The notes under the pieces are model-generated. The model ran no database searches. It worked only from the letters and a program-made list of their open reading frames with translations, and was not told the DNA's origin. A program made the position numbers and the translations under genes. 64,000 nt of DNA from Clostridia bacterium (GTDB taxonomy: Bacteria; Bacillota; Clostridia; Christensenellales; UBA1242). Positions 15,026-64,000 of the stretch are shown piece by piece. Position 1 is the first letter of the stretch. Each line of letters opens with the position of its first letter. The stretch spans positions 44,726 through 108,725 of the forward strand of contig JAEEMI010000016.1 in the NCBI GenBank assembly GCA_016283155.1. Direction: 5' to 3'.

Positions 15026-15140
15026 ATTACCTCCTTAGTGGTCGGTTTCTACAGTAGTCGGTTTCCACTATATTTTACTCAAAAAAAAAAGAAAAACGCA
15101 AACGTTTTTTGAATGATTGACAAATGTTTTGTCGGCACCA

Positions 15141-15170: not shown

Positions 15171-15195
15171 TCAAACCATTAAAAAAGGAGAAAAA

Positions 15196-18477: not shown

Positions 18478-18844
18478 TGGTGGAGACGCCGGGGATTGAA
18501 CCCGGGTCCGCTTGGTTTCTTGTTCGTACTTCTACATACATAGTCGTTATCAAAAATTGACCACCAACCTAACGACAAATTGTCGTAGTCAAGGCCGACT
18601 TTTGGTGCCACGTACCGTCACCGTCTTGCCGTGGTTACGTTACGTCGTTGACTCTTTGTTTGCAGACGGTCGTTAGAAAGAGTTAAAACGTGTCGTCCGC
18701 CTAAACTTTAACTACAATTAGGCAGCTAAAGCAAGGTTTGTTGCATTTTTGTTTGCATTTAATTTTTTGTAACCAATTAACGTATGGTTACCCCGCCGGT
18801 ATGCTTTACGAACCGTCCGCCAAACGTCGAAGCCAATCGCCCCC
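18478..18844 (-). ncRNA. ssrA: tmRNA (SsrA), about 367 nt
   Basis: 5' GGGGGCGATTGGCTTCGACG and 3' CCGGGTTCAATCCCCGGCGTCTCCACCA form a tRNA-Ala-like acceptor with a G3:U pair. Internal tag ORF GCA AAC AAA AAT GCA ACA AAC CTT GCT TTA GCT GCC TAA (18718-18756) encodes ANKNATNLALAA. Confidence 0.9.
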
Positions 18845-46200: not shown

Positions 46201-49200
46201 GGTGTAGTATAGAATAACACGGCAACACGTTGGTTAGTTGAATTCTCTTTTGCAGGAATAATCCAATTGTAACCACCCAGATTATTACGTTTACCGCTGT
46301 TAGCATCGTGAATATGGTTGCTGGTCAACTCAGCAATATTAGATGTTACTTCTTCGGCACTACCAACAAAAATACGCACAATTTTATAATATTTAGGTAA
46401 TACCAAATCAACGTTATTATTGGTATCAACGTAATACAAACTGTCACGCGTATAAATTACCAACGCATAGGATCCCATATCCGTTACATTTTGCAATGGA
46501 TCAATCGTAACCATATCGGAATTAACACAAGCCGTAGCCACATTACCAATTTGTAGATTAGAACCATTCACAACAGGTGCGAAAGGTGATAATTCATATT
46601 TGCCATTTTTCCATTCTGCATATGCAATGCCAATATTTTTATTCGATGCGTCATCAGCCGATTTAACATTAATTTCTGCTCCACTCATTGAACCAACTGT
46701 CGAAATTAATTCAACATAATTTCCCAAATTAGTACTAAAATCATTGCCTGATATAGTTATTGTGTTAGGCTTAGTTTCTGAAATACTAACCGATACAGAT
46801 ACTAAAGCTCCAGCCATATAATTAAATTCAAACGGAAGTTCGTTATTAATTACACCATCACCATCCAAATCAAATTCGGTGAAAATATAATTTTTATAAA
46901 CTTTAAAACCAATATCAAAAACGCCATCAGTTAAATATTTGGCCGTAATCCTAAACTTATTAATTGCCCCTTGTGATTCAATTAACACATTTTCATTTTT
47001 CTGTGCAATGTCAATATGTAAATAGGTATAATCAGTAATCGACACGCCCTCGTACGAGTACATTTTTAATTCGACTTCACGGCTACAGCCAATACCATCC
47101 AAATTAAGGATGGCAGGTTGGGTCACAACGTTAATTACAGGATCAACAACAATCATATAAACCGTAATTGTACGTTGGTGTTCGTGATAAACTTCTTCAC
47201 TATAGGCGTGCAAACTAACCGTACAAGTATAAATTCCTTCAGATAAATCAATCGCATTAAAACTACGTGTATTAGTTGCGATTACTTGATTGCCAACTTT
47301 AATTTCATCAAAAATTGCATATGCACCTACACTTACACTTGGCGTATCAATCGCAAATTGATAATCATATCCCTTACGTACATAGACTGTACGCACATAA
47401 TCATATGTCGAATTATAACTATTAGAAATAGTTTGGTAAACTTTTCCCTGACTATTACTTACAACAGACATTGACAATGCTTCAACTGTTGGGAAAACCC
47501 GAACATTAAACGTATAAGATTTACCATTGGTATAACGAATCGTCATTGGATAATCTTTATAATATTGAATTGGTGCAATATCACTTGCTGTAAAGGTATA
47601 GGTTAGATGGTAATATCCCGCCACACCATCAACGCTAAAGGGTACTGAACGATCACAAGTAATTTCAAATGGTAAATTCTCACTATTATCCGAAACTTTA
47701 GTTGTATTCCAAAATTCACTATAGGTATCAATGTTATCACGAGTTACCATTCCATAAACGTCAACAGATGCCGTGCTAAATGTTTTGTATTTAGTATTAT
47801 ACACTAAAGCAACACCAGAAGTTCCATCGTCAAATTTAGTTAAGTTTTCAACTTTAAATTTGTCAATAGCACTAGTAACATCTAAATTAATATCACAAGT
47901 TGCGTTGCCCCCAATTGATAATTGCTCAATACTTTTTGCGCGTAAAACCATTGAAGTAATATGATTACCAATAAAGTTTGATGCGTTACCTTTATCAGTT
48001 AATGCTACTCCGAAAGTATTCAAGTAATTAACCGAATAGTTACTTTGCGAAAGCATTACCCATTTATTAGTTTGTTTTGACCAATAACCAATGTTTAAAA
48101 TACTATATAAATCGAAGTCTTCATCAACCAATTTTAATTGACCATTTTCTTCAATCCACTTACCCTCACGGTCATAAATTCCAGTATAATTACCATTACT
48201 ATCTTCAACGACCAATTCAAATTGGATATCAGAATCCATATTAATGGTTTTTCCATTGCCGGTATCTAGAGTAAATGTATCATAATATTTGTTAATATTA
48301 TTTTCGTTTTTACCTTCATAAAAAAATGCATCAACTGTTTTTTTACTGGGTGCTAAATTATATGATTTATCGCCGTGAATTCTTACATCACTATCGCCAT
48401 AAAATTCATAACGTACACGTAAATAAATTGTATCAACAATTTGAACATCAACATCAGACTCATCAGCAAAACTGATTTCCGTATTGTTCGTTAAATCTTT
48501 AATAATTGGATATGCCGTAATTCGCACCGCCACTTCTCCAAGGTTTTGTACTGTTGATAACGAACGTTCATACGGCGAAAGATAATCAACACGTACCATT
48601 TTAGTATCTGCACTTTCTACTTTAAAACCATAATCAGAAGCTGCAGTTTTAACTTGGTCTAAAGCAAATGTAAAAGTTGCCCCAGATTGTTCTTCACGGT
48701 TAGCAATTAAATCCCAAACATTTTCATACATTGAAGTAGTTGGTGCCTTGTATGCATCGGTTGTTGTAATTACTTTTGTTGCCTTAGGGAAAACATAAAA
48801 AGGAACATCCAGCCAGTCATCCATAGCGGGCAATTTAACTTGTAAATCAATATATTGATCAACACAAGTTGCCTGATCTGTAACAGTCAAAAAGTCATTA
48901 TCCAAAATGACACCTGAATAATCACGTTTTAAACGATATTCTACTGGAAATTTATTTGGCGTATATATGTGTTCATTATCATCAGGATGAGCATAAAAAT
49001 CATATTTACTTAATATTGCATCTGATTTTAAATTTACCCCTACCCCACCTTGACGAATTCCAAAGTGAGCATTAGTGCCAATCTTCATATCTTTAGCAAT
49101 CATACTAACGGTAACTTTAACCGAAACCGTTTTTGCACCAGATGCACTAGTGAAGACAATGTTAACCGGGGCCCCACCATTTTGTCCGGTAACTTTAAAA

Positions 49201-49565: not shown

Positions 49566-49617
49566 ATGCTTTCCCCCAAACGTTTTTCTCTTTTTCTCGT
49601 TAATCTAGTATGTATAA

Positions 49618-49646
49618 ATTATATTTTTTATATGTCTTATCGTCAA
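49618..49646 (-). promoter_or_regulatory. promoter of the 7,116-aa gene
   Basis: Minus-strand TTGACG-17 nt-TATAAT within the 97-nt gap after the upstream gene. 24/29 identical to the promoter at 62062-62090. Confidence 0.6.
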
Positions 49647-49662
49647 GCAAAAAACGTTTACA

Positions 49663-51288
49663 TTAGGACAAATAAACTTTATTTTGAGAATAAATTTTCA
49701 ACGATCCAACATCACTACCCTTAACCGTAATTCGATTTTTAGCACTAGCCGAATCGTTTTCATCACGACTAATTTTCATATTATTCGTTGCATATGCAAA
49801 GCGTGAACTACTGTTTGCCGAACGCGCAAAATAGACATACATATCTAAATCATTACAATTTTCACTTAAAGTGACATTAACATTACCCCAATCATCGTGT
49901 CCGCTTATATACCCACCAGAACGAATTTCCGCAGTACCAACATTTTTGAATTGTGTATTAATATTTGCCGCTCCTGCTCGCTCTCTTTCACCAAGTATTG
50001 TGATATTTACATCGCCGCCATTAATTCCACGTACATTAATCTCACCATCATAACCAAGGATGTTCACGTTTTGATTAATTGAAATCAAATCGACATCAAT
50101 TTTACCGCCGCCAACTTGATAACTATTAATTGTTACATCATCTGTCACATCACTCAATGAAATACTACCAATACCATAGTTATAAACAGTAGCCGCGCCA
50201 AGTAATTTTTTAACATTAACCGATGCAGTTGCATTTGGTTCACTCGGTGTTCCAGCCGTAAAATTTAGATTTCCATGAATGGCATCTATTTCCAAATTTC
50301 CATTAATGGTATCAAAAACAACATTACCTTTAACAAGTTTATCAACCTGTAATTTACCAGATTGAGTTTTCATAGTAACATTACCCAGTACACCTTCAGT
50401 GACATTAATTGGTGCATTAACCGTTTCAACATCTAACGATTTTTCAATAGTATACACTTTTAGCAATCCACTATCTTGCTTAAAACTCACATTACCTGAT
50501 ACTAAAGTTCCACGGAATTGATTGTTATTACCTTGAATGGTAATATTACCACCTACAGCAAGGACTTCATTACTATAACCAAAATCCAAAACATTATTTG
50601 AACCAGTCACTAATACATCATTTTCAACTTTTGCCTTACAAGTGACCTTAGTTTTATTACCTTTAATTTTGACATTCTTAACTGAACTTTTTTCATTATA
50701 TGCAACATTCACATTACCTGCACTTTCAACAACCAAATCATTAATTAACAATGCATCCGTAGCGTTTTCCATATCGACGAAAGAAAAATCAACAGAGCTA
50801 TATTGATTTTGTAAAACAAAATCATAACGAAATCCATCATTACGGTATGGTAAATTAATATATACAGTAGTTGGTTTTTGTGTGAACACCATTCCTGATG
50901 GTTCTAAGATTTTAATGCGGTAATAAAGCTGATTATTATAAGATGTCTGTGTCCATTCAATTAAAGTACGATTGATATTATTAAATGCAATACCAGTCGC
51001 CGATTCATTAACTACAATTGTATTTTGACCATCATACCCATTATTCGACATCTTAACTTCAACTTTTGTACTATTACTTTCTAAAATGAATCTACCGTTA
51101 GCAAATGCATCAACCAAATCATCATCACAATAAATTACTTGCGTATCACGTTCGTTAACCGACCTGGCCCCAAAGAAAGATGCCTTTGGAAAAATAAATA
51201 AAATTCCTGTAATCAAACCCAATATCACTGCTGCGCCCAATAATACAAACCCAAGCGTTGCGACTATACCAATTGCTTCACGTTTCAC
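49663..51288 (-). CDS. N-terminally anchored beta-helical protein (DUF4097/putative-adhesin-like repeats)
   Basis: 541-aa ORF with GTG start 9 nt after tadA. One N-terminal TM helix, then repeated short beta-strand units (GNVTMKTQSGKLQVDKLVKGNVVFDTINGNLEIDAIHGNLNF; GGDVNITILG...). Confidence 0.55.
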   Translation of the reverse strand: MKREAIGIVATLGFVLLGAAVILGLITGILFIFPKASFFGARSVNERDTQVIYCDDDLVDAFANGRFILESNSTKVEVKMSNNGYDGQNTIVVNESATGIAFNNINRTLIEWTQTSYNNQLYYRIKILEPSGMVFTQKPTTVYINLPYRNDGFRYDFVLQNQYSSVDFSFVDMENATDALLINDLVVESAGNVNVAYNEKSSVKNVKIKGNKTKVTCKAKVENDVLVTGSNNVLDFGYSNEVLAVGGNITIQGNNNQFRGTLVSGNVSFKQDSGLLKVYTIEKSLDVETVNAPINVTEGVLGNVTMKTQSGKLQVDKLVKGNVVFDTINGNLEIDAIHGNLNFTAGTPSEPNATASVNVKKLLGAATVYNYGIGSISLSDVTDDVTINSYQVGGGKIDVDLISINQNVNILGYDGEINVRGINGGDVNITILGERERAGAANINTQFKNVGTAEIRSGGYISGHDDWGNVNVTLSENCNDLDMYVYFARSANSSSRFAYATNNMKISRDENDSASAKNRITVKGSDVGSLKIYSQNKVYLS

Positions 51289-51297
51289 AATCTAAGT

Positions 51298-51690
51298 TTA
51301 ACGTTTATTGCGAAAAAAATCCACTAAAATGTTTTGGGCTTCCGTATTAGGTTGAAATTCAATTGGAGTTTGCCAATTTAAATCTGTAGTTGATTTGGCA
51401 CCAACATAAACTTTACGCAAACGTGCATTTAAAATTGCCCCCATACACATTTGACAAGGTTCTAAAGTTACATACATTTCACAGTCATTTAAACGCCAAG
51501 ATTTTAACTTGCGGCACGCACGATTTAACGCAACAATTTCCGCGTGCCATAAACAGTTTTGTTTATGTTCGCGTTGGTTATAACCTTTAGCAATTACTTT
51601 CCCATTTTTAACTATTACACATCCAATTGGTACTTCTCCCCGGCGTGCAGCAATACGGGATTGTTCAACGGCCATCTGCATAAAATTCAT
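51298..51690 (-). CDS. tadA: tRNA adenosine(34) deaminase
   Basis: HAEIVAL...TLEPCQMCMGAI CDA zinc motifs. Start taken at MNFMQMAV (TAATG overlap with the upstream stop, GGGGGA SD 7 nt upstream). The track ORF extends 5 codons further. Confidence 0.85.
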   Translation of the reverse strand: MNFMQMAVEQSRIAARRGEVPIGCVIVKNGKVIAKGYNQREHKQNCLWHAEIVALNRACRKLKSWRLNDCEMYVTLEPCQMCMGAILNARLRKVYVGAKSTTDLNWQTPIEFQPNTEAQNILVDFFRNKR

Positions 51691-52766
51691 TACCAAGTCC
51701 CCCAAATTAATGACAACACCGTGATTGATGACCCAAGCACTAATACCGCAGTTAATAAAGCCCGTTCCAACGGTCTTGAACGTTGCGGTTGATCAAATGT
51801 TTCTATGTATGCTGCTGTCGCTTTCCAAGTTGGCAAACTGCGAATTGCTCTTGGAATTACGCCACGTAAAGTATCAAAATCTTCTACAGTGAATTTTTTT
51901 TGTGAAGCCAAATAACGTACAGTATAACTATCTAAGTTACGATTAAATTTATCACGTGCCATACAGCGTAAAAGTTCGCCAATAATAATTACCGTAATTA
52001 TTACTGTCAAAATTAATGCAATACCATTACCGAGTAAGAATTTTATGACATTAACCCCTGGTAAATGTAAATCTTCTGCATAACTGAAATAAGTCGCTAA
52101 CGCATTATTGGTGAAATGGACAATAATACTTCCCCATAATGATCCTGTAGCCAACACCGTGACGCCCATAAACCAACCAAGAACACAGGAATAAAAGAAT
52201 TGACCAATATTCATATGCATTAAACCGAACAATAAACTACTTATTAGAAGCGCATTACGGACACCTAATTGTTTTACTAAACCATTTAGCAAAACTCCAC
52301 GGTGTAAAAACTCTTCACAAATTCCCGGCAACACCGCACTCAAAACCAATGTAATTAAAAGACCAAGATATCCAGTAAAAACATTATCATTAGCGGGATA
52401 CTGATAACCAAATGATTGTAACAATACGGCAAACACGCTACCGATAAAAACATTTAAAAGATAAACACATATTCCAATTACGAAACATAGAACAATATTC
52501 TTAAAAGAAATTTTTTGCCAATTAACCATTTGATTAATTTGTTTAATTGAAACAGTTTCGTGATTGATTTTTTGTGCAACTAACAACATCAACAATGGAA
52601 TGCCTAACATAACCACAACTTGTGGCAAAATACTAACAATCACTTCACACATTTCTTCAGATAAACCATTAAAGCATCCCAAAGCCGCTAAAACACGCAA
52701 TAGCATCAACAATAAGATTGCTGTACCATAAACTAATAATGTAATTAAATAACGCTTATTTTTCAT
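51690..52766 (-). CDS. CPBP family intramembrane glutamic endopeptidase (Abi/CAAX protease family)
   Basis: 358-aa polytopic ORF. EEFLHRG, FGLMH and HFTNNA motifs. Confidence 0.8.
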   Translation of the reverse strand: MKNKRYLITLLVYGTAILLLMLLRVLAALGCFNGLSEEMCEVIVSILPQVVVMLGIPLLMLLVAQKINHETVSIKQINQMVNWQKISFKNIVLCFVIGICVYLLNVFIGSVFAVLLQSFGYQYPANDNVFTGYLGLLITLVLSAVLPGICEEFLHRGVLLNGLVKQLGVRNALLISSLLFGLMHMNIGQFFYSCVLGWFMGVTVLATGSLWGSIIVHFTNNALATYFSYAEDLHLPGVNVIKFLLGNGIALILTVIITVIIIGELLRCMARDKFNRNLDSYTVRYLASQKKFTVEDFDTLRGVIPRAIRSLPTWKATAAYIETFDQPQRSRPLERALLTAVLVLGSSITVLSLIWGTW

Positions 52767-53334
52767 AATTAGGAATTCCTTTTTTAATTAATAGCCACAC
52801 AACCGCCGTAGTTGCAACAGCTAAACCTACGGATAAGATTATATTTAACACACTTAAATTAAACACATCGTTACCATTTCCAGCAAAATATGTATATGTA
52901 ATAATAAAAGCATTATTGATAAAATGAATTAACATTGTCCAACCAATTTGGTGCGTTTTAATAAAAATCCAAGCCAACCAAATCCCCATCAAAAACTGAT
53001 AAACAGTTTGCGACCAAGAATGATGATATAGTGCAAAAATCAAAGCACTAATTACCATTACACACCAAATCGGCATTTTAGTTAATTGTAATAATTTGCA
53101 ACTCAACAACCGAAAAATCAATTCTTCCATTAACGGTGCCAATAACGCTCCCATCAAAAACACCAACCAAAAGCCTGATGCAAATAAATCATTACTTGAA
53201 CGACTTTCTAGACCCCAATGAATAAAAAGTTCAGCACATAAATTTTGCAACATTAAGTATCCAAACAAGCACACAAAAGCAATGACTACACACACCGCAA
53301 ACGTACGTAAATTATTCTTAACTTTTGACATCAC
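52756..53334 (-). CDS. CPBP family intramembrane glutamic endopeptidase
   Basis: 192-aa polytopic ORF. EELIFRLL, ALYHH and HFINNA motifs. Overlaps the next CPBP gene by 11 nt. Confidence 0.8.
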   Translation of the reverse strand: MMSKVKNNLRTFAVCVVIAFVCLFGYLMLQNLCAELFIHWGLESRSSNDLFASGFWLVFLMGALLAPLMEELIFRLLSCKLLQLTKMPIWCVMVISALIFALYHHSWSQTVYQFLMGIWLAWIFIKTHQIGWTMLIHFINNAFIITYTYFAGNGNDVFNLSVLNIILSVGLAVATTAVVWLLIKKGIPNYEK

Positions 53335-53352
53335 ATCTAGTATATTATTAAA

Positions 53353-54141
53353 GTGTTAAAAATCCAAACATTAAGTAGCGGTAGCGCAGGTAATATTACT
53401 TATATTGGTAGTGCAACTACTGGTATCTTAGTTGATGTCGGTTTACCATTGTCAATGACATTGAAATTAATGAGTCAAGCCAATATTGATCCACATTCAA
53501 TTACCGGTCTGGTAATTACTCACGAACATAGTGATCATATCAAAGGCGTGGCTGATTTTGTAACGCAATACAACATACCAATTTATTGCTACAATCGTTG
53601 CGCTAAAGTGCTCCGTCGTAATTTAAAACTACCACCACACCATTTTATTGAAACAGAAAGTAATTTCTATATTGGTGATATTAACGTTAATTGTTTTCCT
53701 GTTCCACACGATAGTCAATTTTGTTTAGGTTATACATTTCACTATAACAATCTATCAGTTGGTATTGCAACTGACATAGGACAAATGACTGATATTATTC
53801 TAGCAAATTTAGCTACTTGTCAAATTGTTGTAATTGAAAGTAATCACGATGTCCAAAAACTAATGGCTAATCCTAAATACCCTGACTGGCTAAAACGTCG
53901 TATTTTAGGCAACCACGGTCACTTGTCTAACCTTGATTGTGGACGAGCGATTGCTAAATTACACCAAGCTAACGTATCGCAAATAATTTTAGCGCATTTA
54001 AGTGAAAAAAATAATACTCCTACTCTTGCCTATCAAACCGTAAAACAATACCTACAAACCCAAGGAATCACCGAAGGAAAAGATATCTTTATTGACGTTG
54101 CCTTACAAAGTCAAATCGGTAATTGTTACTGTCTTGAATAA
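53353..54141 (+). CDS. MBL-fold metallo-hydrolase (YycJ/WalJ-like)
   Basis: 262-aa ORF with GTG start. LSSGSAGN, ITHEHSDHIKG and HGHLSN motifs. Confidence 0.85.
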   Translation: MLKIQTLSSGSAGNITYIGSATTGILVDVGLPLSMTLKLMSQANIDPHSITGLVITHEHSDHIKGVADFVTQYNIPIYCYNRCAKVLRRNLKLPPHHFIETESNFYIGDINVNCFPVPHDSQFCLGYTFHYNNLSVGIATDIGQMTDIILANLATCQIVVIESNHDVQKLMANPKYPDWLKRRILGNHGHLSNLDCGRAIAKLHQANVSQIILAHLSEKNNTPTLAYQTVKQYLQTQGITEGKDIFIDVALQSQIGNCYCLE

Positions 54142-57100
54142 TTATTTAGTTGTCATCTTATGACGCATACGGATAAAGATTAATGCACCGATTCCAGCAA
54201 TTCCCAGCACAACGGCCAAAATCACATAACCAAAAGTACTTTGTTCTTGTTCAATCGTCCAACTATCACTATACACAATATCACCTTCAGCATCACGCAC
54301 GGCAATACGGTAAATACCTGCACCCGAAGTTGTAAACAATTCTTGAGCTGAATAGCTATCCGCCAATACACTACTATCAACAGTAATTTCTTGTTGAACT
54401 ACATAATCTTTTGTCAAAGTAATTGTCACATCACCTTGCGCCAAATACAACCAATATGGATTGTAATATAATGTTACCGAACCAACTGTTGAAGAACCAC
54501 TAGCACCACTCAAAATAAAATATGTACTTGCACTATTTGTTTTATGTTGTATGTTAAAACTAATTTCATAAAGAATATTAGTTTGTAAAATAGCATTATA
54601 AGCCTGCATTGTAACGACATATTTACCTGGATTATTATTGGCATCAAATGATATATATGTATCATTTGCATCTCGTACAATATAGTTATCAGTATTGTGA
54701 ATGTTATATCCGTCACGCGTAATTGAAATTACCGGAATATTGGGGTAAAGTGACATATTAAACGATTCACTAACTGTCAAGGACGGAATAATTTGGAACG
54801 AATATTCACCCGTTAATAAACTAGAAATTTCACCACCATTATTAGCATTAGGATTATAAATACGGTATTTCAAAATTATGTGATACTTGCCACTTTGATT
54901 CCAATAAAACACATTTTGCGCACCACTTACATCCATTTTTTCTTTGGTCGTACCATTTGAACCTGAATATGTCACTTCAATTTCGGTAACACAGAAATAT
55001 TGTTCAAAGAAATCTTTATTGGTCAAAGTAGTTATACCGCTACTAGCTAATAAATTATAATATTTCTTTAAAAAGCCACTACCATAATCAACCATCTTCA
55101 ATTCAACTTGATCATTATAAATCATACCACCAACTGGTTGATTTCCATTAATTTCAACAACTGGTTTTGTCATTACCGCTAATAAATAACGATCCTGTTG
55201 ATAATTAACATCACTTTCGTCATCGCTACTACCAAAATACAAATAGTTACCAATCAAGTCGTGAACCTTGAATTCATAATAACCAGCATCGCTCTGATTA
55301 ATAGTAAATACATCATTATGTTTTAATGTTTTAACCAAAATACCGTTATAATAACAATCTACCAAAATCAAATTACCAATTTGCGAATAACAGGGAGCCC
55401 CCTTATCATCATAACGAACGGAATCATCGCAATATAACTGAACAGTTAATTTTTCACCACGCGCCTTGGTCATAAAATTATTGTAGACAAAATTATATCC
55501 AGTACTTAACGGAACAAGATATGGATTATTATCAGCTGTGTTGGTTGGATTACCATTTAATTTTAAACGAATCGAATTATCACTAGGTAAACGACCTTTG
55601 TTAACACCTGTTGTGGCAAAATAAATTGGATTAGTATATGTCGGAACACCATTACTATCCTCACTAACTTTTAAAGCTAAACGCCAAATCAAAGTTTCGT
55701 TATATGGGTCATAATCATAATAATCCCAACCGTTTTCGTATCTACCAGCCAAAATACGATTAGTTTGACCCTTGAGAATTTCCAGCCCGTGTTTATCATA
55801 TTGAGTAATCGGATATGGAGCATTTATACTTTCGTCAAACGTTGTGCTGAAAATGTAACGCGTAATCGCAATCTCTTTGCCATTTACCGTATATTTATAA
55901 TCGCTATCGCTAGCTTGAATTTGCTTACCATCATCTTTAACTACTACCAAAGTATCATTAATTTGTACAATTTCAAATTTGAACGTTTGTTTAGCCCAAA
56001 CTGTGTTACGTAAAGTAACCTCGTATTTGCCTTCCTGATAGAAAGTAACTTTATTAGTATCTGGTTTTAAAGTTACCGATTCTACCTGATTATTTAAAGT
56101 ACGCGTATAAGAAATTGTAACAGGAAACATTGTGGTAAGTGTACTTCGACTAATATCAAAAGTAACCGCACTGACGAATGATTGTCCTTCAACTTCAATT
56201 AATTGATCACTCGCATTTTTCCATTCAACGTTTGGTAAACGAGTATCAAAGGCAAAAGTTTTATCAAATAAGATTGCCCCACTGGCACGACCAGTTGCAA
56301 CAATATGATACATCTGCACTGTCGATAAATTACTTTGAGGTTTAAAAGTATAATAAATCATATCATTACTAATAAACGATTGTAAATCATTCAACAATGT
56401 GTCAGTATTAGCATCATAAATTAAAACTGTATAAACAGTACGTAAATAACTAAAACTTACCCCACGTTCATCACCGACATAAATGATTCCATTTCTTGTT
56501 ACAGTGTTACCATACGCTGAGAAGTTAATTGTACTATGTGATTGTTTATGATATTCAGTTGTACTAACACGACCAAATGGATCAGTAACCTTGATAACAA
56601 ATTCGTGCGAAACATCAAGATAGATGGTTGTACCAGACAATGAAAAATGAATATTAGGCACTATTTCAGAAGTTGTTTTATCTTCAACTTCAATTTGGAA
56701 CAACGATGTTAAATTCTTATCCGATAAAATTCGTGGCAGACTGTTAAGATTAGTTACCTCCAAAGTAATCATATTACTGGTAATATTCGGTTGATAACAA
56801 TCCAATTGCATTTGTACAGCATCTTCACGTAAATTATAAAATTCAAATACTTCTACATCACCAATCCGATCGTATAGTTTATACGAACATTTTGTACCTT
56901 TTTCAGTAGCTACATTAATCCAATTATTCAAAGCATTAATCAAATTTTCTTCACTCTTAACTCCATTACCACTATCATTACCAATATGCCAACTCGCTCT
57001 ACTGCCTAAAACAGTATAATACTCATCACCACTCTCAAATTTGAAAGAATTGTTATGCAAGAAAAATTCGTGAACACTGGAAGCTGATGCACTCATTTCA

Positions 57101-60100
57101 ACACCAATTTGAATTTCGTCATTTTCATCACTAATCGCACCAATAAACGTAACAGCATTAACATAGTTGATACCTTGGACTTGAACCATATAACTGGTTA
57201 TGTGCCCCGCATAATCAGTTTCTGTGATGTAATAATATTTCATTTCGTTATCACGTAAACCAATTAGCGTAGCAAATGGTATACGTTCCTCACCTGTTTC
57301 ACCAGTATATAAACTAAATGCAATTGGTTGTTGTGAACCTTCACCAGTATAATCAACTTCACGATATGTAATCGTTTTTGCGTCCAGATAAGGATTATTA
57401 AGTCGGTCACTCTCAAAAACAAAATTAGCACTTAAACCATAGACATAATCACCAGGTAACTCTGTAGCATCCATCGTAGATGCTAAGTTATCCTCCGTCC
57501 TAATGCGGTTTAGATTATACTTTGGTTCAAAGCTATCAAACAAAATTATGTAATTCGTACGTGTGTTATCACAAGTAATTAGACTTACAGATAAACTCGC
57601 GCCATTTGTAATTGAAGTCGTATTCAGGAAATCTTCCATTAAATCAAAAGTACAAACGCCATTAACAGCGGTTGGCTCATTAAGCGATACCGACTGCGTA
57701 ACACCATTCACTTTCCAAATCCAACTTGCTGTTGTTGCACTTAAATCCACATCAGCATACATACTAGCAGGATCACTATTAAAACGGAATTGCAATTGAT
57801 CAACATTACGTGGGTCAAGAATATACCAGTAATTATTGCCGTCATATTGCATATCAGAGTTACTAATAATATTATTTTCACCTGTAACAATTTCGGCCTT
57901 GGTTCCAAAACCTGTATCAAGATTCAATGTAATACAATCCCAATTCGCACTAGTCGGAGCATTGGAATCTTTAAGTTCCACAACATTACCATCAACTAAG
58001 ATACAGGAAAGATTACGCGCATTATCAGCAATGATTAAATCATATACTGGACTATCAGTTCGACTTGCTGGATCACCAATTACCCACGGATTAGTTGATT
58101 TACCTTCTCCCAAAGCAACTGTTTGTCCATTGTTAATATAACTAAAACGTGGTGTTAACGCTGGGAAATCAAAACGATGCACCGTTTCAGATGAATTATT
58201 TTCAAGATAAGCCAAATGATTAGCGTGTTTAATTTCATAGTTAGTACTATCGTGTTTCCAAGAATATTTACTGTTAAATCCCGTTATCCAAGCGGTGCGA
58301 TTACTGCTTAATTCATATTTATCTCCTTTCTTACTATGGCTCAAGACTTCAGCATCAGCATCTTTCGCTTTTGGATATTGAGCATCTTTACTCTCAGCGA
58401 AACGAATCTTCAGGGTTGTTTGGTAATCATCTGCGTAATACAACATCTTTTGGTTATCAACAATGAAATAATAATCACGACTCCACGTATCGGGATACAT
58501 ATTGGAAGCATAGACACGTGTAATGATATACATACCAGACGGCGTAATCGTATTATCATTAAATAATGCTAAACGAATCGTACCGCCACTACTATCCTTA
58601 GCCGCATTATACAAATATATTCGACCATCATTATCTTGCCCCGGGAAATACTCAACAAGTCTACCATTAACTGTTGTCGTTGGTCGGTTTACTTGATATT
58701 CTGAAAACGGATAATTTGCTGATGTTACGTCATATGTGAATGGGTAATATTGTAAATACACGGTTTCAACACGATAAGTTTCACCAGCAGTTGCAGCTTT
58801 TTGTTCAAAAGAGAAAGTCACATAGGGACGATTTGTCATTCCCCCTGTACTGGTAACCAAACTTGTTCCCGAATCAGGTGTAGCGGTAATCATACCACGA
58901 TTAGAATGCTTCTCGTCAGTAGATAGATTAATGGGGTTTTCTTCAGCATAAACCATACCAAAACAACTATCGTGTGTTAGAACAATATAATATTCACCAA
59001 CATTTCCCAAAACATCAGTAACACGGAAATAATAGGTACCCTCTTGGTTTAAAACTAGATAACCATTGTTAATATCGGTTTGTGCAACATCACGGTAAAG
59101 ATCTCCAGACACACTCCATTCAACACGTGCTAATGGTATCTTAATTGATTGCTTGTTTTCAGTCATCACGCCCGAATTTCCCAAACTAGCAAAAATTGGT
59201 TGATACATTGTACCGCCAAAGGGATTGTTTTCTTGGCTTCGTTTGATTAATTTATTTTTACCAAAACCAATTTTAATTCCATCATCATCAAAACTAATAG
59301 TATTAGAAACTGAAGTTGGCTGACTACCACTTTGAATAAATGTTGGTGTACTATTATCAATAATCAAAACATATGGCGTTTCGTTACCAACTTCATCAAT
59401 CAAATTAAAACGATATAATCCAGCCATTGAAAACTTCTCCGATACCGTCCAACCACTCTCAGTCAACTTTGGAACCAAACTATTGGAAATTGAAATTGTT
59501 TTAGCAAATGAATACGCACTATACAAATCCGTAACTTTCGTTGATGGGAAATATGCATAATTTATTGCTAGGTTTGGATCAGCTACTGTTTTATCCGAAA
59601 CCATTTCGTAAAATTCATAATCGACACTAGCAAAATTAATTCCACTACTTTTACGATTCCAAGTTAAAGACACATCTCCTGCCCCAACAATTGCAACATT
59701 ATCTGGCAATGTATGATTTACGTCAGCTAATGACTTTGCTTGAGTATTAGCTCTAATTCCAGTTGCCTGAGTATCATCAACGACAATGTTAAAAATTGTT
59801 GTTGATTTACCGTGAGCACCATATTTAATGGTTAAACGATATTGACCTGGAATTAAACTAAATTCAAACGTACCATCTTCTTGCATTGTAATGTTTTGAT
59901 CAACATAAGTATATTTACCAAATTCCGCATACGCTAGAGTAACCATTGGTAAAACTTCAAATTTACCTAAAGTTGTTTTTCCATCATAACTTAAGCGAAC
60001 CTGATTACCTGCGATATGCAAATCCTTATTGATTTCCAATTCACCCGCATAGTATTTTTTAGTCTCATTATTAGCGGTAACTTCAAACGCGATATTCGCT

Positions 60101-62034
60101 GAATTTGTAATTTCAAAATAGAAAGTCTGTTGACATATTTCATTATTAACTTTGAAATAGATCACAACCAAGTATTGTCCGGCATCTTCAAACGGAGCAC
60201 CAACTTCCAAAGTTTTACTAGTCCATTCACTGGTGTGTCCCGTGCCGTAAAACGGACGGAAAGCCACTGTCGACAAGACCACAGCTTTTTCACCATTAAC
60301 ACCTGTTCCAGTAGCGTGTGCGACGTTACCTGACATTTTAACGGGTGGAAAGTTGGTTCTTACTGGCTGAATTGTTCCACTAGATGTAATGTAATTAGCT
60401 AAATCATTAGAATATTTCAAAGCATCCGTTACACGCATATGAGTGTAATCGACGACCGAACTGCTTTTATCAGCCGTTAAATTAGCACTACGTACCCACG
60501 CAGAAATATCACTACTAATATTTGCATTAGCACTATCGTAAAATGGCAATGGCCCATTATACTTTTCAGAAGCGTGTTGTCCACCATAATACGCTTGGAA
60601 ACCAAGAATATTCAAAACACTTGCATAGGGTTGATAACGCTTTAAAGTAACGTAACCATTATCAACGCCACGTAAATTAAAACTTTGTCGGTTATTATAT
60701 AAATAATCACTGTAGTACCGCAAAGTCGAAACCATCTGATATTCGCCGATGTTGTAGAATTTTAACTCACGTTCTTCATATCTTTCAGGATTCTCATAAT
60801 ACTTAGTTGAAGTTGCGATTTTAACATCAAAAAATGAAGCACGATAATTAACTACCGGATATTCGCTTTCGTATGAGTAATTATAAATTTCATTATTACC
60901 GGGTACGCGGTTATTGGTATTGAAACGCGGAAAATTAATGTAATTGGCTTTATTAACAATAATGAATGTAAATGATACATCAATCGGTGTATAAACACCA
61001 TCAGCTGTTGATACCATTTGTTTAAATGAAATTTCATAAACACCTTGATCACGGAACATACCACGCAAGGCTTTTGTATTGTACGCCACTGCCCCAATAC
61101 TATAGGAAGTATATTGATGTTCGTTCTGATTAAATACCAGTTGTCCCAACTGTACATTAGATTGATTATTTACTGTCAAACTATTATTATCACGATTTAC
61201 AATATACAATAAATTACCATTAGCATCACAAAGTTCAGTGCGCCCATTTCCAATGGTTTTAGCTTCAGTTAATTGATTAGTTATCGCATCGTACATATAT
61301 AAATATTCAGCATTAGTGTTTTTGATTTCAACAATATAACCTTCCATAGCGGTACTACTTGGAGCAAAAATCACATTCAATAAAGCCGTGGTTTTATCTG
61401 TATCATAAATCACTCCCGACATTGTGGTAAGCGTACTACTCGGAACACCTCGATAAACATTTTCTTCCGCATAAGTATTATCAACTGTATGAAGATTAAC
61501 ACCATTTTGAAAAGCAACGCCATCGCGTTTAATACTCAAATTAGTTGGCATCTCTTCAATGTTAGTTAACTCAAACAAAACGATGTCATCATAATTAAAT
61601 GGATCCAGCATTACCACCGGAATCTCCAAACTGTTTCCTAACCCCTTAGCAATCGAACGCATATCAACATTAGAAAAAACTGGATATGGCTCGGACGTAC
61701 GATAAGTAGACTGAAGATTACGATATGAACGATTACTAATTGGTTTAGCGTTTAAGAATTCGGTTAAGATACCACGCTCATAACGTTCGGTAGTTAGTGT
61801 CAATTTAGCACGTTGTCCTAACTCAGTTGTTCCGGTATCAGCCGCACTAAATGAAATTTTTTCATATAAATCATCAAACGTTGGAATATAATTTGGATCG
61901 ATTGTTGAAGATTCCGCCACTGCGCTAGAAAAAGTATCACGGAAATTATAAAGCAAGCTTGCCCCGAATAAAGCCAGCACGACCGTTACGCTCAAGATAG
62001 TCAGCGCAATAATTCTACCACGGCTATACTTCAT
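54142..62034 (-). CDS. giant (2,630 aa) surface protein with N-terminal and C-terminal TM helices and many Ig-like beta-sandwich modules
   Basis: Uninterrupted 7,893-nt ORF. ATG with GGGGGAA SD 5 nt upstream. N-terminal TM IIALTILSVTVVLALFGASLL and C-terminal TM FGYVILAVVLGIAGIGALIFI followed by RMRHKMTTK. At least 10 copies of G-x-Y-x-hydrophobic-x-hydrophobic-x-D-x-x-G(N) (e.g. EGTYYFRVTDVLGN, AGLYRFNLIDEVGN, AGYYEFKVHDLIGN, GIYRIAVRDAEGD). Confidence 0.85.
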   Translation of the reverse strand: MKYSRGRIIALTILSVTVVLALFGASLLYNFRDTFSSAVAESSTIDPNYIPTFDDLYEKISFSAADTGTTELGQRAKLTLTTERYERGILTEFLNAKPISNRSYRNLQSTYRTSEPYPVFSNVDMRSIAKGLGNSLEIPVVMLDPFNYDDIVLFELTNIEEMPTNLSIKRDGVAFQNGVNLHTVDNTYAEENVYRGVPSSTLTTMSGVIYDTDKTTALLNVIFAPSSTAMEGYIVEIKNTNAEYLYMYDAITNQLTEAKTIGNGRTELCDANGNLLYIVNRDNNSLTVNNQSNVQLGQLVFNQNEHQYTSYSIGAVAYNTKALRGMFRDQGVYEISFKQMVSTADGVYTPIDVSFTFIIVNKANYINFPRFNTNNRVPGNNEIYNYSYESEYPVVNYRASFFDVKIATSTKYYENPERYEERELKFYNIGEYQMVSTLRYYSDYLYNNRQSFNLRGVDNGYVTLKRYQPYASVLNILGFQAYYGGQHASEKYNGPLPFYDSANANISSDISAWVRSANLTADKSSSVVDYTHMRVTDALKYSNDLANYITSSGTIQPVRTNFPPVKMSGNVAHATGTGVNGEKAVVLSTVAFRPFYGTGHTSEWTSKTLEVGAPFEDAGQYLVVIYFKVNNEICQQTFYFEITNSANIAFEVTANNETKKYYAGELEINKDLHIAGNQVRLSYDGKTTLGKFEVLPMVTLAYAEFGKYTYVDQNITMQEDGTFEFSLIPGQYRLTIKYGAHGKSTTIFNIVVDDTQATGIRANTQAKSLADVNHTLPDNVAIVGAGDVSLTWNRKSSGINFASVDYEFYEMVSDKTVADPNLAINYAYFPSTKVTDLYSAYSFAKTISISNSLVPKLTESGWTVSEKFSMAGLYRFNLIDEVGNETPYVLIIDNSTPTFIQSGSQPTSVSNTISFDDDGIKIGFGKNKLIKRSQENNPFGGTMYQPIFASLGNSGVMTENKQSIKIPLARVEWSVSGDLYRDVAQTDINNGYLVLNQEGTYYFRVTDVLGNVGEYYIVLTHDSCFGMVYAEENPINLSTDEKHSNRGMITATPDSGTSLVTSTGGMTNRPYVTFSFEQKAATAGETYRVETVYLQYYPFTYDVTSANYPFSEYQVNRPTTTVNGRLVEYFPGQDNDGRIYLYNAAKDSSGGTIRLALFNDNTITPSGMYIITRVYASNMYPDTWSRDYYFIVDNQKMLYYADDYQTTLKIRFAESKDAQYPKAKDADAEVLSHSKKGDKYELSSNRTAWITGFNSKYSWKHDSTNYEIKHANHLAYLENNSSETVHRFDFPALTPRFSYINNGQTVALGEGKSTNPWVIGDPASRTDSPVYDLIIADNARNLSCILVDGNVVELKDSNAPTSANWDCITLNLDTGFGTKAEIVTGENNIISNSDMQYDGNNYWYILDPRNVDQLQFRFNSDPASMYADVDLSATTASWIWKVNGVTQSVSLNEPTAVNGVCTFDLMEDFLNTTSITNGASLSVSLITCDNTRTNYIILFDSFEPKYNLNRIRTEDNLASTMDATELPGDYVYGLSANFVFESDRLNNPYLDAKTITYREVDYTGEGSQQPIAFSLYTGETGEERIPFATLIGLRDNEMKYYYITETDYAGHITSYMVQVQGINYVNAVTFIGAISDENDEIQIGVEMSASASSVHEFFLHNNSFKFESGDEYYTVLGSRASWHIGNDSGNGVKSEENLINALNNWINVATEKGTKCSYKLYDRIGDVEVFEFYNLREDAVQMQLDCYQPNITSNMITLEVTNLNSLPRILSDKNLTSLFQIEVEDKTTSEIVPNIHFSLSGTTIYLDVSHEFVIKVTDPFGRVSTTEYHKQSHSTINFSAYGNTVTRNGIIYVGDERGVSFSYLRTVYTVLIYDANTDTLLNDLQSFISNDMIYYTFKPQSNLSTVQMYHIVATGRASGAILFDKTFAFDTRLPNVEWKNASDQLIEVEGQSFVSAVTFDISRSTLTTMFPVTISYTRTLNNQVESVTLKPDTNKVTFYQEGKYEVTLRNTVWAKQTFKFEIVQINDTLVVVKDDGKQIQASDSDYKYTVNGKEIAITRYIFSTTFDESINAPYPITQYDKHGLEILKGQTNRILAGRYENGWDYYDYDPYNETLIWRLALKVSEDSNGVPTYTNPIYFATTGVNKGRLPSDNSIRLKLNGNPTNTADNNPYLVPLSTGYNFVYNNFMTKARGEKLTVQLYCDDSVRYDDKGAPCYSQIGNLILVDCYYNGILVKTLKHNDVFTINQSDAGYYEFKVHDLIGNYLYFGSSDDESDVNYQQDRYLLAVMTKPVVEINGNQPVGGMIYNDQVELKMVDYGSGFLKKYYNLLASSGITTLTNKDFFEQYFCVTEIEVTYSGSNGTTKEKMDVSGAQNVFYWNQSGKYHIILKYRIYNPNANNGGEISSLLTGEYSFQIIPSLTVSESFNMSLYPNIPVISITRDGYNIHNTDNYIVRDANDTYISFDANNNPGKYVVTMQAYNAILQTNILYEISFNIQHKTNSASTYFILSGASGSSTVGSVTLYYNPYWLYLAQGDVTITLTKDYVVQQEITVDSSVLADSYSAQELFTTSGAGIYRIAVRDAEGDIVYSDSWTIEQEQSTFGYVILAVVLGIAGIGALIFIRMRHKMTTK

Positions 62035-62061
62035 TCGTATTCCCCCAACATAGTATGTTTA

Positions 62062-62090
62062 ATTATAAGTTTTATATTTGGTATCGTCAA
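62062..62090 (-). promoter_or_regulatory. promoter of the 2,630-aa gene
   Basis: Minus-strand TTGACG-17 nt-TATAAT within the 71-nt gap after the coupling-protein gene. Paralogous to 49618-49646. Confidence 0.6.
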
Positions 62091-62105
62091 TCAAAACACA
62101 ATGGC

Positions 62106-64000
62106 TTACCATTCAAATAAATCTTTGCGTTGTGCGTTATTCACACGACGGATAACAATGTCATTACGACGATGAATATCATAATAAATTGCCGCTTCAT
62201 CAAAGAACTTACCGGGAATATAGATATCTGGTGTCGGTAATAATTTAATTACCCCCTTATTAATACATTGATAAAATAATGTTACTTTACTACGCAAAGG
62301 ATGGAATGTGAAGCAATAGATAAAGATATTACCAGGAATAATATCTAGTAATTCGTTCGGTGGTAATAACGGACGACTAGCGGTATTGGTTGCAGTTGAT
62401 TTGCTACCACCTTCAGCATCATTTTTAGCTGCCTTACCAGTATTACGACTAACTGTAGTACTTTCCGTCGTAACTTCCATATCCCCCATCAAGTCCGAGA
62501 ACATCTTACGCGTATCAGTATCATTAACACCGACAAAAACCTGATGGTTACAGTTATTACGCACAGTAACTGCAGTTTCTGCACCATATGTTGTTTCCAA
62601 TTGCTTATAATCCTGCAAAACCAATGTAAAGAAAATCAAACGTGAACGCGAAACGGTAATAACGGTAGCAAAATCATTAATCTTTGGCATATTACCAAAC
62701 TCATCAAGAATGAAATAGGTTGGCCACGGTAATTTACCACCACGTTCATTGGCACTAGCAACTAATGATTTATACAACTGTGAAATACACAAAGTGGCTA
62801 ATGGATGACGAACCTTAATTTGATCAGGAATAATCAAGAAGAAAGCAGTTGGCTTTTTCGCAAAATCTTCAAATTTAATATCGGTACCACTGGTAATATA
62901 ACAAATACCCTTATCGTTAAACATCGACAATTTTTGTGTTGCGATACCGAAGAAGTTACGCATCGTGTTTTCTGCGTTAGCAGTAACAGTTTGCGCCAAC
63001 GAAGCAGCTACCGATAAGACATCACGACCCTCAAAATAATTTTTAATTGTTTTAAACATTGCTTGCGGATCATTATCACGAATTGATAAAATTTTGAAAA
63101 TATTATAGAAATTAAACTTCTCACGTGTCATTCCCAAATTTGGATTCAAACTATCTTCTAACATGGCCATTGCTGTACCCTGAATTAAATCACGAGCCCC
63201 CTGCTCCCAACTTGGATCTTTCTCATTTTCTATTGGACAGATTGCCGAACAAATATCTTTAATATCAGCTTCAGCATCAGAAATTAACTGTTGACGTAAA
63301 GTACGCATTTCATTTTCTGCCATTTCTTTACTAGGAAACGCAATGCCATTAAAAGCATACCAAACTGGTGGATAAGTACTAGCAATCACACGTAATCCTA
63401 ATTTAGCAGGATTTGCGTTTTCATAACGTTGAATTTCACGTTCTAGATGCTGTGCTCGTTGAAACATATCCCAAGGTTTTTCAAAAGGATTCCATCGTGA
63501 ACTACGAATTGGATCATTTAAATTAAACACCTGGACGTCATAACCTTGATGACGCAAACTTTCTGCCATTGAACGATAAATTTCTCCCTTGGGGTCGGTA
63601 ATAACTAGATTAGGTTTTTGATTAGAAAACCCCAATGTATAAATAAATGGGAAAACATAACCTTGTGTTTTTGCCGCACCAGTTGTACCTAAAACAATCG
63701 AATGATAATCCTTGGGAATCATATTGATATGAATATCATTACCAATTAATTCAAAACGAGCTAACGGACCTGTTTTCTTTAAACTTGATAATTGCGAAGC
63801 ACGCGTGTAAATATAGATTCGGTCACGTTCTGCCGGCGTCATCCAACGGTTAGAATAATATTGCGAAACCCCACTTTTCTTTTTTCCATTTTTGCCATCT
63901 GCATCCAGAAACTTAAACAAAAAGAATGCCAGCAAGCATAAAGGAATCAGCATCATTCCTGTTTGAAAAATTGTATCATTAATTGCTGCAAAACTAAATA
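62106..64000 (-). CDS. type IV secretion coupling protein (VirD4/TraG/TraD family), probably 5'-truncated by the window edge
   Basis: HSIVLGTTGAAKTQGYVFP (P-loop position), NLVITDPKGEIY...GYDVQVFNLNDP and YFILDEFGNMPKI (Walker B) match the T4CP layout. The reading frame stays open upstream of the first Met at 63956 through position 64000. Confidence 0.75.
   Translation of the reverse strand, partial: FSFAAINDTIFQTGMMLIPLCLLAFFLFKFLDADGKNGKKKSGVSQYYSNRWMTPAERDRIYIYTRASQLSSLKKTGPLARFELIGNDIHINMIPKDYHSIVLGTTGAAKTQGYVFPFIYTLGFSNQKPNLVITDPKGEIYRSMAESLRHQGYDVQVFNLNDPIRSSRWNPFEKPWDMFQRAQHLEREIQRYENANPAKLGLRVIASTYPPVWYAFNGIAFPSKEMAENEMRTLRQQLISDAEADIKDICSAICPIENEKDPSWEQGARDLIQGTAMAMLEDSLNPNLGMTREKFNFYNIFKILSIRDNDPQAMFKTIKNYFEGRDVLSVAASLAQTVTANAENTMRNFFGIATQKLSMFNDKGICYITSGTDIKFEDFAKKPTAFFLIIPDQIKVRHPLATLCISQLYKSLVASANERGGKLPWPTYFILDEFGNMPKINDFATVITVSRSRLIFFTLVLQDYKQLETTYGAETAVTVRNNCNHQVFVGVNDTDTRKMFSDLMGDMEVTTESTTVSRNTGKAAKNDAEGGSKSTATNTASRPLLPPNELLDIIPGNIFIYCFTFHPLRSKVTLFYQCINKGVIKLLPTPDIYIPGKFFDEAAIYYDIHRRNDIVIRRVNNAQRKDLFEW

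Follow-up and report, generated by a model that had tools for sequence, protein, structure and literature searches.

The window analysed here is a stretch of 64,000 nucleotides from the Clostridia bacterium contig JAEEMI010000016.1, which derives from an uncultured, low-GC (35%) gut Clostridia lineage. Two genes on the same strand lie at its right-hand end: one encodes a VirD4/TraG-like type IV coupling protein (T4CP) with a variant P-loop, and the other encodes a giant surface protein of 2,630 aa. This pair is the subject of the present analysis. The T4CP gene, which is located 24 nt downstream of the ppx-pnp genes, runs across the window edge and shows the following features.

62106..64000, minus strand: T4CP gene (VirD4/TraG-like, CD1115 family); the window holds residues 35-664 and the stop codon, and the first 34 codons lie past the edge.
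63666..63689, minus strand: Walker A motif (P-loop) GTTGAAKT; the variant Ala codon GCA (63672-63674) occupies the canonical Gly position before Lys.
62700..62717, minus strand: Walker B motif YFILDE (hydrophobic strand followed by Asp-Glu), read from the sequence.
63099..63278, minus strand: start of the all-α domain (DAEADIKDICSAICPIENEKDPSWEQGARDLIQGTAMAMLEDSLNP...), residues 241-300 of the window protein, taken from the identity profile.

The motifs LGTTGAAKTQG, ITDPKGEIY, GYDVQVFNLNDP and YFILDEFGNMPKI are read directly from the T4CP frame, which is still open at base 64000 (FSFAAINDTIFQTGMMLIP...). The TAA stop codon occupies 62106-62108 of the minus strand, and the ATG of the giant gene is at 62034 on the same strand. 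The motifs quoted in an earlier reading of this DNA (hereafter the original prediction), together with the 71-nt gap, the shared strand and the open frame, were all confirmed.

The T4CP matches three Pfam families, T4SS-DNA_transf (PF02534; 7.7e-48, 163.9 bits with a cutoff of 20.1), TraG-D_C (PF12696; 9.6e-30, 103.5 bits) and TrwB_AAD_bind (PF10412; 1e-23, 84.3 bits), as well as NCBIfam NF045973 (VirD4-like conjugal transfer protein, CD1115 family; 285.5 bits with a cutoff of 250). By these profile scores, the family assignment is far above what chance would give. A weak match to the PADLOC model mad8 (35.7 bits compared with 164-285 bits for the T4CP models) is due to the common P-loop fold, and an identity as a defence-system protein was rejected. 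The gene with its 5´ end was found in a second strain, on contig CAKJZN010000001.1 (GCA_918298255.1; locus L037), which was reached through P0121, a 99%-identical homolog of the 2,630-aa protein, and which is 99.34% identical to window positions 44142-64000 without gaps. The T4CP of this strain has a full length of 664 aa, and its last 630 residues are identical to those of the window protein. Two hydrophobic N-terminal helices span approximately residues 6-29 and 45-64; with the 34 missing codons added, the protein has the usual T4CP topology, a membrane domain of two helices at the N-terminus. The AlphaFold2 model, for which 34 homologs were used (predicted local distance difference test (pLDDT) score 78), matches Helicobacter pylori Cagβ and R388 TrwB over most of its length (Foldseek: best E 8.6e-16; target TM-scores 0.56-0.76). 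A full T4CP architecture is thus encoded, with two N-terminal transmembrane helices, a nucleotide-binding domain and an all-α domain. The curated family matches and the TrwB/Cagβ-like fold bear out the T4CP identity that had been proposed from the motifs.

The giant gene and the spacer that separates it from the T4CP gene comprise three features.

54142..62034, minus strand: 2,630-aa giant surface protein with an N-terminal signal/anchor, a long β-sandwich array and a C-terminal transmembrane helix.
54145..54240, minus strand: tripartite C-terminal end of the giant (STFG motif, transmembrane helix and basic tail RMRHKMTTK), defined by clade comparison.
62035..62105, minus strand: 71-nt spacer with a promoter (-35 TTGACG at 62085-62090, -10 TATAAT at 62062-62067) and a GGGGGA Shine-Dalgarno sequence.

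The last 1,100 residues of the giant were modelled by AlphaFold2 as tandem β-sandwiches followed by a terminal helix (pLDDT 78). Foldseek aligned this model with Ig/FN3-type arrays, including the GhpA grappling-hook base, titin-like/thick-filament proteins, contactin and alpha-2-macroglobulin, and 'surface protein' is a fair description. Neither this protein nor the two other large proteins of the window described below (7,116 and 541 aa) matched a Pfam or NCBIfam family, and no NCBIfam C-terminal sorting-domain model was matched. In a check for LPXTG-type anchoring, the signal, the helix and the basic tail were all present; the motif before the helix is QSTFG and not LPXTG, and no Pfam sortase-family match was found among window open reading frames (ORFs) of at least 100 aa. 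A search with the last 450 aa of the giant returned two fragments only, and an exact-match look-up of the 2,630-aa protein and of the cluster member P0150 gave no match. The tail pattern R[ML]RxxM[TS]TK is nearly invariant within the clade despite the fast-evolving ectodomain. All T4CP-linked giants, including those of the sister clade and of loci L034 and L035, have an N-terminal signal/anchor, a very long ectodomain, and a transmembrane helix with a basic tail of ~9 residues.

The distribution of the pair was followed by scanning one genome per species, which gave 28 loci. All are from metagenome-assembled genomes (MAGs) of uncultured Clostridia, Eubacteriales or Christensenellaceae, and they originate from ruminant, human, mouse and termite guts. 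Three of the loci (L012, L015 and L023, on CAZXAV010000001.1, JAMPCO010000002.1 and CAYJJH010000010.1) are titled 'Prevotella sp.' yet show the same Clostridia-type synteny and 78-92% T4CP identity; their taxonomic labels or binning are probably wrong. A same-strand ORF of at least 1,500 aa that starts within 3 kb downstream of the T4CP gene was counted as a giant partner. Such an ORF, mostly of 2,400-2,850 aa, follows the T4CP gene at 18 of the 22 evaluable related loci, or at 20 of 24 with the window and L037 included, and the gap is 70-75 nt in the closest species. Giant homologs drop from 64% to 22% identity over the same species in which the T4CP drops only from 95% to 63%. Window-type giants and those of the sister clade have ~400 homologous C-terminal residues (E = 4e-13).

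More distant relatives carry the same pair inside clusters of type IV secretion system (T4SS) genes. In L034 and L035, where T4CP identity is 34-35%, the gene order is an ArdC-like anti-restriction gene, a MobL relaxase, the T4CP, a 2,390-aa giant, a VirB2-like T4SS_pilin and a VirB6-like membrane protein; the gap between T4CP and giant is 5-7 nt, and these loci are bona fide conjugative elements. In L040 and L041 of the sister clade (43% T4CP identity), the T4CP and a 2,854-aa giant stand divergent from an operon that encodes a pilin, a VirB6-like protein (Mycoplasma-ICE families MMCAP2_0566 and Mbov_0396), VirB4 (DUF87, P-loop_TraG) and a 1,028-aa protein. The pilin-like and VirB6-like proteins are homologous across the L034/L035 and L040-type loci. 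As an observation in its own right, the compact T4SS-like cluster at L040 190-9513 and at L041 has no relaxase within 10 kb, and P0082 occurs on at least 30 contigs; the cluster may be a T4SS without a relaxase, possibly a domesticated one, in a species of Clostridia that is common in the gut. Shorter versions of the cluster were also observed. A pilin-like gene is still present just upstream of the T4CP gene in the termite-gut loci L028 and L031 of the window clade, and only the T4CP and a 2,520-aa giant are left in L038 and L039 of the sister clade, between aminoacyl-tRNA synthetase genes and hipA. A coiled-coil C-terminal extension of ~110 aa found in the L034/L035 T4CPs is missing from the window T4CP. 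These loci form a reduction series: in two or more separate branches, the T4CP has survived, in most cases together with the giant. Because distant relatives carry the same pair inside T4SS clusters, the window pair is shown to be a vertically inherited, chromosomally fixed remnant of a Firmicutes-type conjugation/T4SS cluster. In a literature search on orphan T4CPs, CD1115, and Christensenellales with T4SS, no account of an orphan coupling protein next to a giant fibril came up.

The original prediction had offered, as one of two readings, that the window edge enters a conjugative element with the 2,630-aa protein as cargo or adhesin, and the distant L034/L035 loci, where the T4CP-then-giant order belongs to a MobL conjugative element, speak for it. 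The sequence beyond the edge does not. Upstream of the T4CP gene, L037 carries a PNP_UDP_1 nucleoside phosphorylase gene (24-nt gap), a Ppx/GppA gene and the contig end, and pnp and ppx are found likewise in L042; both loci belong to the species of the window. Within 10 kb upstream, ~20 related loci contain ppx, pnp, a Polysacc_synt/MurJ-like flippase gene, DUF421 and uvrA; DUF4363 and three genes for uncharacterised secreted or membrane proteins on the opposite strand are also found there in other species of the clade. This conserved trio upstream of ppx (L001 2324-5938, L002 3914-7552, L005 3127-6666) encodes a secreted protein of ~890-900 aa and two small membrane-anchored proteins (~140 and ~175 aa). 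Pfam and NCBIfam searches assigned no family to the trio proteins (893, 177 and 138 aa), and a VirB6-like identity for the 893-aa protein was rejected, as it is unrelated to the VirB6-like protein of L040. The window itself carries the chromosomal markers glmS, nusA, pheST, recD2, a sigma factor, cell-wall amidases, three tRNAs and a transfer-messenger RNA (tmRNA). The tmRNA gene, at 18478-18844 on the minus strand with the tag peptide ANKNATNLALAA, is usable as a chromosomal marker for this uncultured lineage. Two further features lie next to the giant gene.

53353..54141, plus strand: convergent metallo-β-lactamase (MBL)-fold (Lactamase_B_2) gene, identified by Pfam; a syntenic marker of the chromosomal site.
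51690..53334, minus strand: two tandem CPBP/CAAX (Rce1-like) intramembrane protease genes, identified by Pfam; the same genes are found in L001, L005 and L037.

The MBL gene is located 3´ of the giant gene in every clade locus that is long enough and has a giant, down to 50% MBL identity, which argues for long residence at one chromosomal site. Deeper branches of the clade have a different upstream flank (ScpA/ScpB in L006).

The surroundings of the T4CP gene inspected for transfer functions amount to ~72 kb, made up of 62 kb downstream and the 10-kb upstream flanks. Tblastn probes from the related T4SS loci (VirB4, two VirB6-like proteins, three VirB2-like pilins, the MobL relaxase and the ArdC-like protein) gave no match in the 64-kb window or in the flanks of window-type loci, and no relaxase, origin-of-transfer (oriT)-associated gene, integrase or T4SS gene was found within ~60 ORFs around the T4CP. 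An integrative conjugative element (ICE) or conjugative plasmid co-localises relaxase, VirB4 and T4CP, with an integrase and att site or Rep/Par; here, the T4CP stands alone between housekeeping flanks. An integrative mobilizable element would bring a relaxase and an integrase, both of which are missing, and the site is syntenic across species between which synonymous divergence (dS) is saturated. The usual context of the T4CP family, a T4SS with VirB4 or a relaxase, is absent from the window and from the 10 kb upstream at ~20 orthologous loci. The plasmid collection contained no close relative of the T4CP (best 29% identity) or of the conjugative-element giant. With housekeeping genes on its flanks and no match to the T4SS probes, the conjugative-element reading is unsupported and extremely improbable. 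The expectation that the gene and its T4SS partners continue outside the window held only for the gene, and only for 34 codons; the extension that had been proposed as a check for VirB4, VirB6, relaxase and integrase genes met pnp and ppx, with no such genes in the 99.3%-identical strain or at the ~20 related loci.

The T4CP gene is maintained at this site with little change in the protein. Pairwise Nei-Gojobori comparisons between the window and 13 other species, at dS values above 1 or saturated, gave ratios of nonsynonymous to synonymous divergence (dN/dS) of 0.02-0.06 for the T4CP and 0.13-0.30 for the giant. Only synonymous changes separate the T4CP genes of the window and the 99% strain, and reading frames are intact in more than 20 species. 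These codon comparisons show a gene kept by very strong purifying selection and not a decaying one. The start of the all-α domain and the Walker B region are the most conserved stretches of the T4CP, and SWExGARD[LM]I is its most conserved peptide pattern. At the all-α start, clade members have an identity of 0.82-0.85, which falls to 0.54-0.68 in comparison with the sister clade and to 0.48 with T4CPs of conjugative elements. The contact partner of this substrate-binding domain has apparently remained unchanged since the relaxase was lost from the neighbourhood.

The atypical AKT ending of Walker A that had been pointed out in the original prediction is a genuine variant. In a wider set of the 149 nearest 50%-identity representatives from a library of 1.84 billion proteins, 144 were alignable, and 142 of these have Gly at the position. 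GTTGAAKT recurs without exception among orthologs at or above 89% identity, and since these come from independent assemblies, a sequencing error, which had been named as an option, is contradicted. Proteins of 78-84% identity carry GTTGANKT or GTTGSSKT, except for P0011 (SGKT), and two further sub-branches carry G..G[AS]NKT. The canonical GTTG[SA]GKT is found in most of the clade and in all 45 sister-clade sequences placed in the tree. A neighbour-joining tree indicates that Gly was replaced by Ala, Asn or Ser at least four independent times. A residue other than Gly precedes the Walker Lys in 17 of 72 clade proteins compared with 2 of 144 in the wider set (Fisher p = 1.8e-7, with counts that are not phylogenetically independent). 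Among the conjugative elements, the L034 T4CP has GATGTSKT and its relative L035 has canonical GATGTGKT; the L034 variant stands in an apparently intact MobL conjugation module, and the substitution is therefore compatible with such a T4CP. Walker A endings in 'GKG', seen in some clade members, were rejected as a sign of degeneration, since functional Cagβ aligns with SGKG.

The remainder of the ATP site is unchanged. The two other Walker A glycines, the Lys and Thr, TDPKGE, the Walker B DE, RSR, QDYKQL and NNCN are invariant in 17 of 17 non-Gly proteins, suggesting that the P-loop site has been modified and not abandoned. Since none of the Lys, Thr, Walker B and sensor elements varies, we infer that the T4CP still binds nucleotide, and the Gly-to-Ala/Asn/Ser changes would retune the ATP site instead of destroying it. 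Asn is the non-Gly residue that best tolerates the positive phi angle of P-loop glycines, which fits its recurrent choice. Active MCM helicases also occur with Ser before the Walker Lys, and Koonin is said to have described in 1993 MCM Walker A motifs with Ala or Ser instead of Gly. The natural form of the motif in MCM proteins is [G/A]KS (PMC2674469). These hexameric translocase ATPases, with the Walker A pattern Gxx[G/x]x[G/A]KS, are active with Ala or Ser before Lys; they belong to an unrelated ATPase clade (AAA+), and the comparison therefore shows only that an ATPase can be active with this substitution, not that the window T4CP is. In Ras, on the other hand, the G15A substitution at the equivalent position strongly weakens nucleotide binding, and by this analogy altered kinetics or affinity is likely in the variant T4CPs. 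The rarity of non-Gly residues in T4CPs (2 of 144) and the variation among A, N and S within the clade could also be read as the loss of an inactivated gene, with the T4CP as a decaying relic or pseudo-ATPase. The dN/dS values and intact frames contradict such decay, as do the invariant Lys, Thr, Walker B, RSR, Q and NCN elements, the preference for Asn, which fits a kept loop backbone geometry, and the active MCM helicases with A or S at this position, so that a relic is very improbable.

The 71-nt spacer bears on whether the two genes act together. Its promoter, TTGACG-17 nt-TATAAT, has 11 of 12 matches to the sigma-70-type consensus, and a consensus scan found no terminator-like site in the spacer. 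In a comparison of 14 species with saturation at synonymous sites, the -35 core TTGAC did not vary, the -10 hexamer hardly did, and both the spacing and the run GGGGG were retained. This conservation beyond saturated synonymous sites makes it very probable that the giant gene has its own strong promoter. The T4CP gene is probably read through from the ppx-pnp genes, judging from the 24-nt spacing. A stand-alone promoter and a T4CP gene that abuts ppx-pnp are what would be expected if adjacency did not reflect partnership, that is, if the T4CP served an independent housekeeping role, such as FtsK/SpoIIIE-like membrane-bound DNA translocation, and the giant were a leftover neighbour expressed independently. 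The persistence of the T4CP without the giant in L026, L027, L029, L033 and L007 also agrees with an independent role, as does the position of the L033 T4CP within apparent V-type ATPase genes, which were judged from N-terminal sequences alone. However, the two-gene core was retained in two separate T4CP clades, the window clade and that of L038/L039, after loss of the neighbouring T4SS genes; the pair is kept at 20 of the 24 evaluable loci, and the near-invariant cytoplasmic tail of the giant would still need explaining. An independent housekeeping role is accordingly regarded as unlikely. The L033 locus is also of interest in itself: at 4712-15511 of this Christensenellaceae MAG, a T4CP with a canonical P-loop and no giant lies among the apparent V-type ATPase subunit genes.

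The reading that we favour, with a confidence a little better than even, is that the window holds a chromosomally fixed, T4SS-derived T4CP-giant pair in which the T4CP has been co-opted. The original prediction had put forward, as its second reading, that a conjugation-derived ATPase was recruited to a surface protein; the pairing and the T4SS ancestry are shown, and the functional link stays putative. The giant, as a fibril, is the best candidate partner of the T4CP: no other neighbour has been kept in both of the reduced lineages, and the giant has a nearly invariant transmembrane helix and cytoplasmic tail although its ectodomain evolves fast. The descriptive findings are solid, and from them we infer the following mechanism. 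The T4CP would have been co-opted for a role without need for a relaxase, and perhaps without a T4SS channel. Its likeliest site is the cytoplasmic membrane face, together with the giant fibril. The giant is probably exported by the Sec pathway via its N-terminal signal and expressed from its own conserved promoter. A T4CP hexamer may dock at the fibril base via the transmembrane helix and the near-invariant basic tail of the giant, which form a candidate docking site; basic C-terminal tails are common T4SS recognition signals, and the start of the all-α domain of the T4CP is as conserved as the catalytic core, even in comparison with T4CPs of conjugative elements. When the fibril makes surface contact, the docked T4CP could respond by handling DNA or protein as a substrate at the expense of ATP; alternatively, it could organise the fibril base.

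Several observations weigh against this co-option of the T4CP by the fibril. The functional partnership is putative, and the adjacency could be inherited gene order. The T4CP gene is intact at four loci of the clade that have no giant beside it (L026, L027, L029 and L033), and L007 of the sister clade has a pilin and T4CP only, among pfor, ppdK, recO, minDE and mreB. With a promoter between them, the T4CP and giant genes need not be co-transcribed, which weakens a strict operon argument, and the ordinary N-terminal signal of the giant requires no special exporter. The giants of the window and of L034/L035 have one repeat in common only, the 'G.Y...D.aGN' β-sandwich module (hhalign 94.5%, E = 8e-8). 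Instead of a docking site, the motif-helix-tail end of the giant might be a signal for sorting that is read by a sortase-like enzyme or by the adjacent CPBP proteases. Finally, T4SS genes could exist elsewhere in these genomes, beyond the ~72 kb inspected.

The last point opens a less probable alternative, in which the T4CP is a coupling protein that acts in trans with a T4SS channel encoded elsewhere or on resident or incoming ICEs or plasmids. It might then resemble the T4CPs of integrative mobilizable elements, or be a host decoy that interferes with such elements, and the giant would be a matching mating adhesin. The retained T4CP architecture and ATP-site motifs, the derivation of the pair from T4SS clusters, and the extent of the inspected region are all compatible with use in trans, which is recognised for T4SSs (PMC3158045). 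Against it stand the lack of any relaxase, oriT-associated gene, integrase or T4SS gene among the ~60 surrounding ORFs, the stable chromosomal position 24 nt after pnp across species, and the absence of the ~110-aa C-terminal extension of the L034/L035 T4CPs. At the other extreme, the T4CP and the giant could form a stand-alone, two-component surface system that is independent of any T4SS channel, which we consider quite unlikely. In that version, a membrane-embedded hexameric T4CP would sit on the transmembrane helix and tail of a ~100-nm β-sandwich fibril and would use its retuned ATP site to switch or drive contact-dependent transfer or uptake of macromolecules, or else to organise or actuate the fibril.

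The locus can be compared with several known systems. The CD1115-family VirD4-like proteins (NF045973) of Firmicutes plasmids, for example the 68-kb plasmids of Bacillus thuringiensis, have the same family and Pfam domains, and the best annotated plasmid matches bear this name. Compared with them, the nearest annotated protein is 29% identical, and the window gene is chromosomal, has no relaxase or T4SS gene nearby, has the P-loop Gly replaced and lacks the C-terminal extension. TrwB of R388 and Cagβ of H. pylori resemble the window T4CP in fold, in profile matches (8dol and 1e9r), in the membrane-anchored N-terminus, and in the nucleotide-binding and all-α domains. However, identity is only 13-17%, and both proteins use a full T4SS with a defined substrate (a relaxase-DNA complex or CagA), whereas the window neighbourhood contains no channel or substrate gene. 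Chromosomal T4SSs that lack MOB, or are domesticated, derive from conjugation, have no relaxase and have been interpreted as co-option (Guglielmini et al., 2011; PMC3158045). VirB4 is the defining component of that class, in which a T4CP may or may not be present; in the window, the T4CP survives and VirB4 is missing. The L034/L035 MobL elements and the L040/L041 cluster have the same gene order, in which a T4CP (34-43% identity) is followed by a C-terminally anchored giant of 2,390-2,854 aa with the common β-sandwich repeat and C-terminal layout; these loci add a relaxase, a VirB2-like pilin, a VirB6-like protein and/or VirB4.

Giant surface proteins of more than 7,300 aa and ~2,640 aa have been described on 'Hodor' conjugative megaplasmids of gut Bacillota (preprint PMC12934698). 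The likeness lies in giant secreted proteins whose C-terminus combines a motif, a transmembrane helix and a basic tail, in the association with VirD4, VirB4 and VirB6, and in sizes strikingly close to the 7,116 and 2,630 aa of the window. By the described features, Hodors have 45-47% GC, Rep/Par, sortases and S-layer/MBG domains, whereas the window has 35% GC, is chromosomal and encodes giants with no Pfam match. An assignment of the window to a Hodor megaplasmid was rejected on GC content, chromosomal markers and domain content.

The second giant ORF (28215-49565, minus strand) encodes 7,116 aa from a TTG start, has an N-terminal signal/anchor and no C-terminal transmembrane helix, and is 7,113 aa long in the 99% strain; both halves gave no Pfam match. 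It is preceded by a gene for a membrane-anchored, Gly/Asn/Val-rich protein of 541 aa (49663-51288, minus strand) with a β-helix-like look and no assigned family, and the two are kept together in the 99% strain. By BLASTP, neither protein is homologous to the 2,630-aa giant. The CPBP/CAAX genes, 20 bp past the MBL gene, lie with it between both giants and are syntenic with the 2,630-aa gene across species. It is speculation that these proteases could process the C-terminal STFG-helix-tail signal of the giant.

A coupling protein takes its definition from the cargo, relaxosome or effector, that it links to a T4SS channel. In the present case, a family-level lineage of gut Clostridia, sampled from ruminants, humans, mice and termites, keeps a T4CP under selection of core-gene strength with the channel and relaxase genes gone from its neighbourhood, and the one partner that recurs beside this T4CP is a surface fibril of giant size and rapid evolution. 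These genomes will be mis-scored by automated ICE finders that rely on counts of T4CP matches. The natural series of G, A, N and S before the P-loop Lys, in an otherwise invariant ATP site, would be useful for studying how nucleotide cycling is tuned in T4CPs. A stand-alone two-component system, if true, would be the first coupling-protein function outside the type IV secretion machine. The findings suggest that this orphan chromosomal T4CP has a job outside classical conjugation. If these genomes encode no T4SS elsewhere, T4CPs can function independently of a channel, and the conserved pair of T4CP and giant is a concrete place to look for that function.

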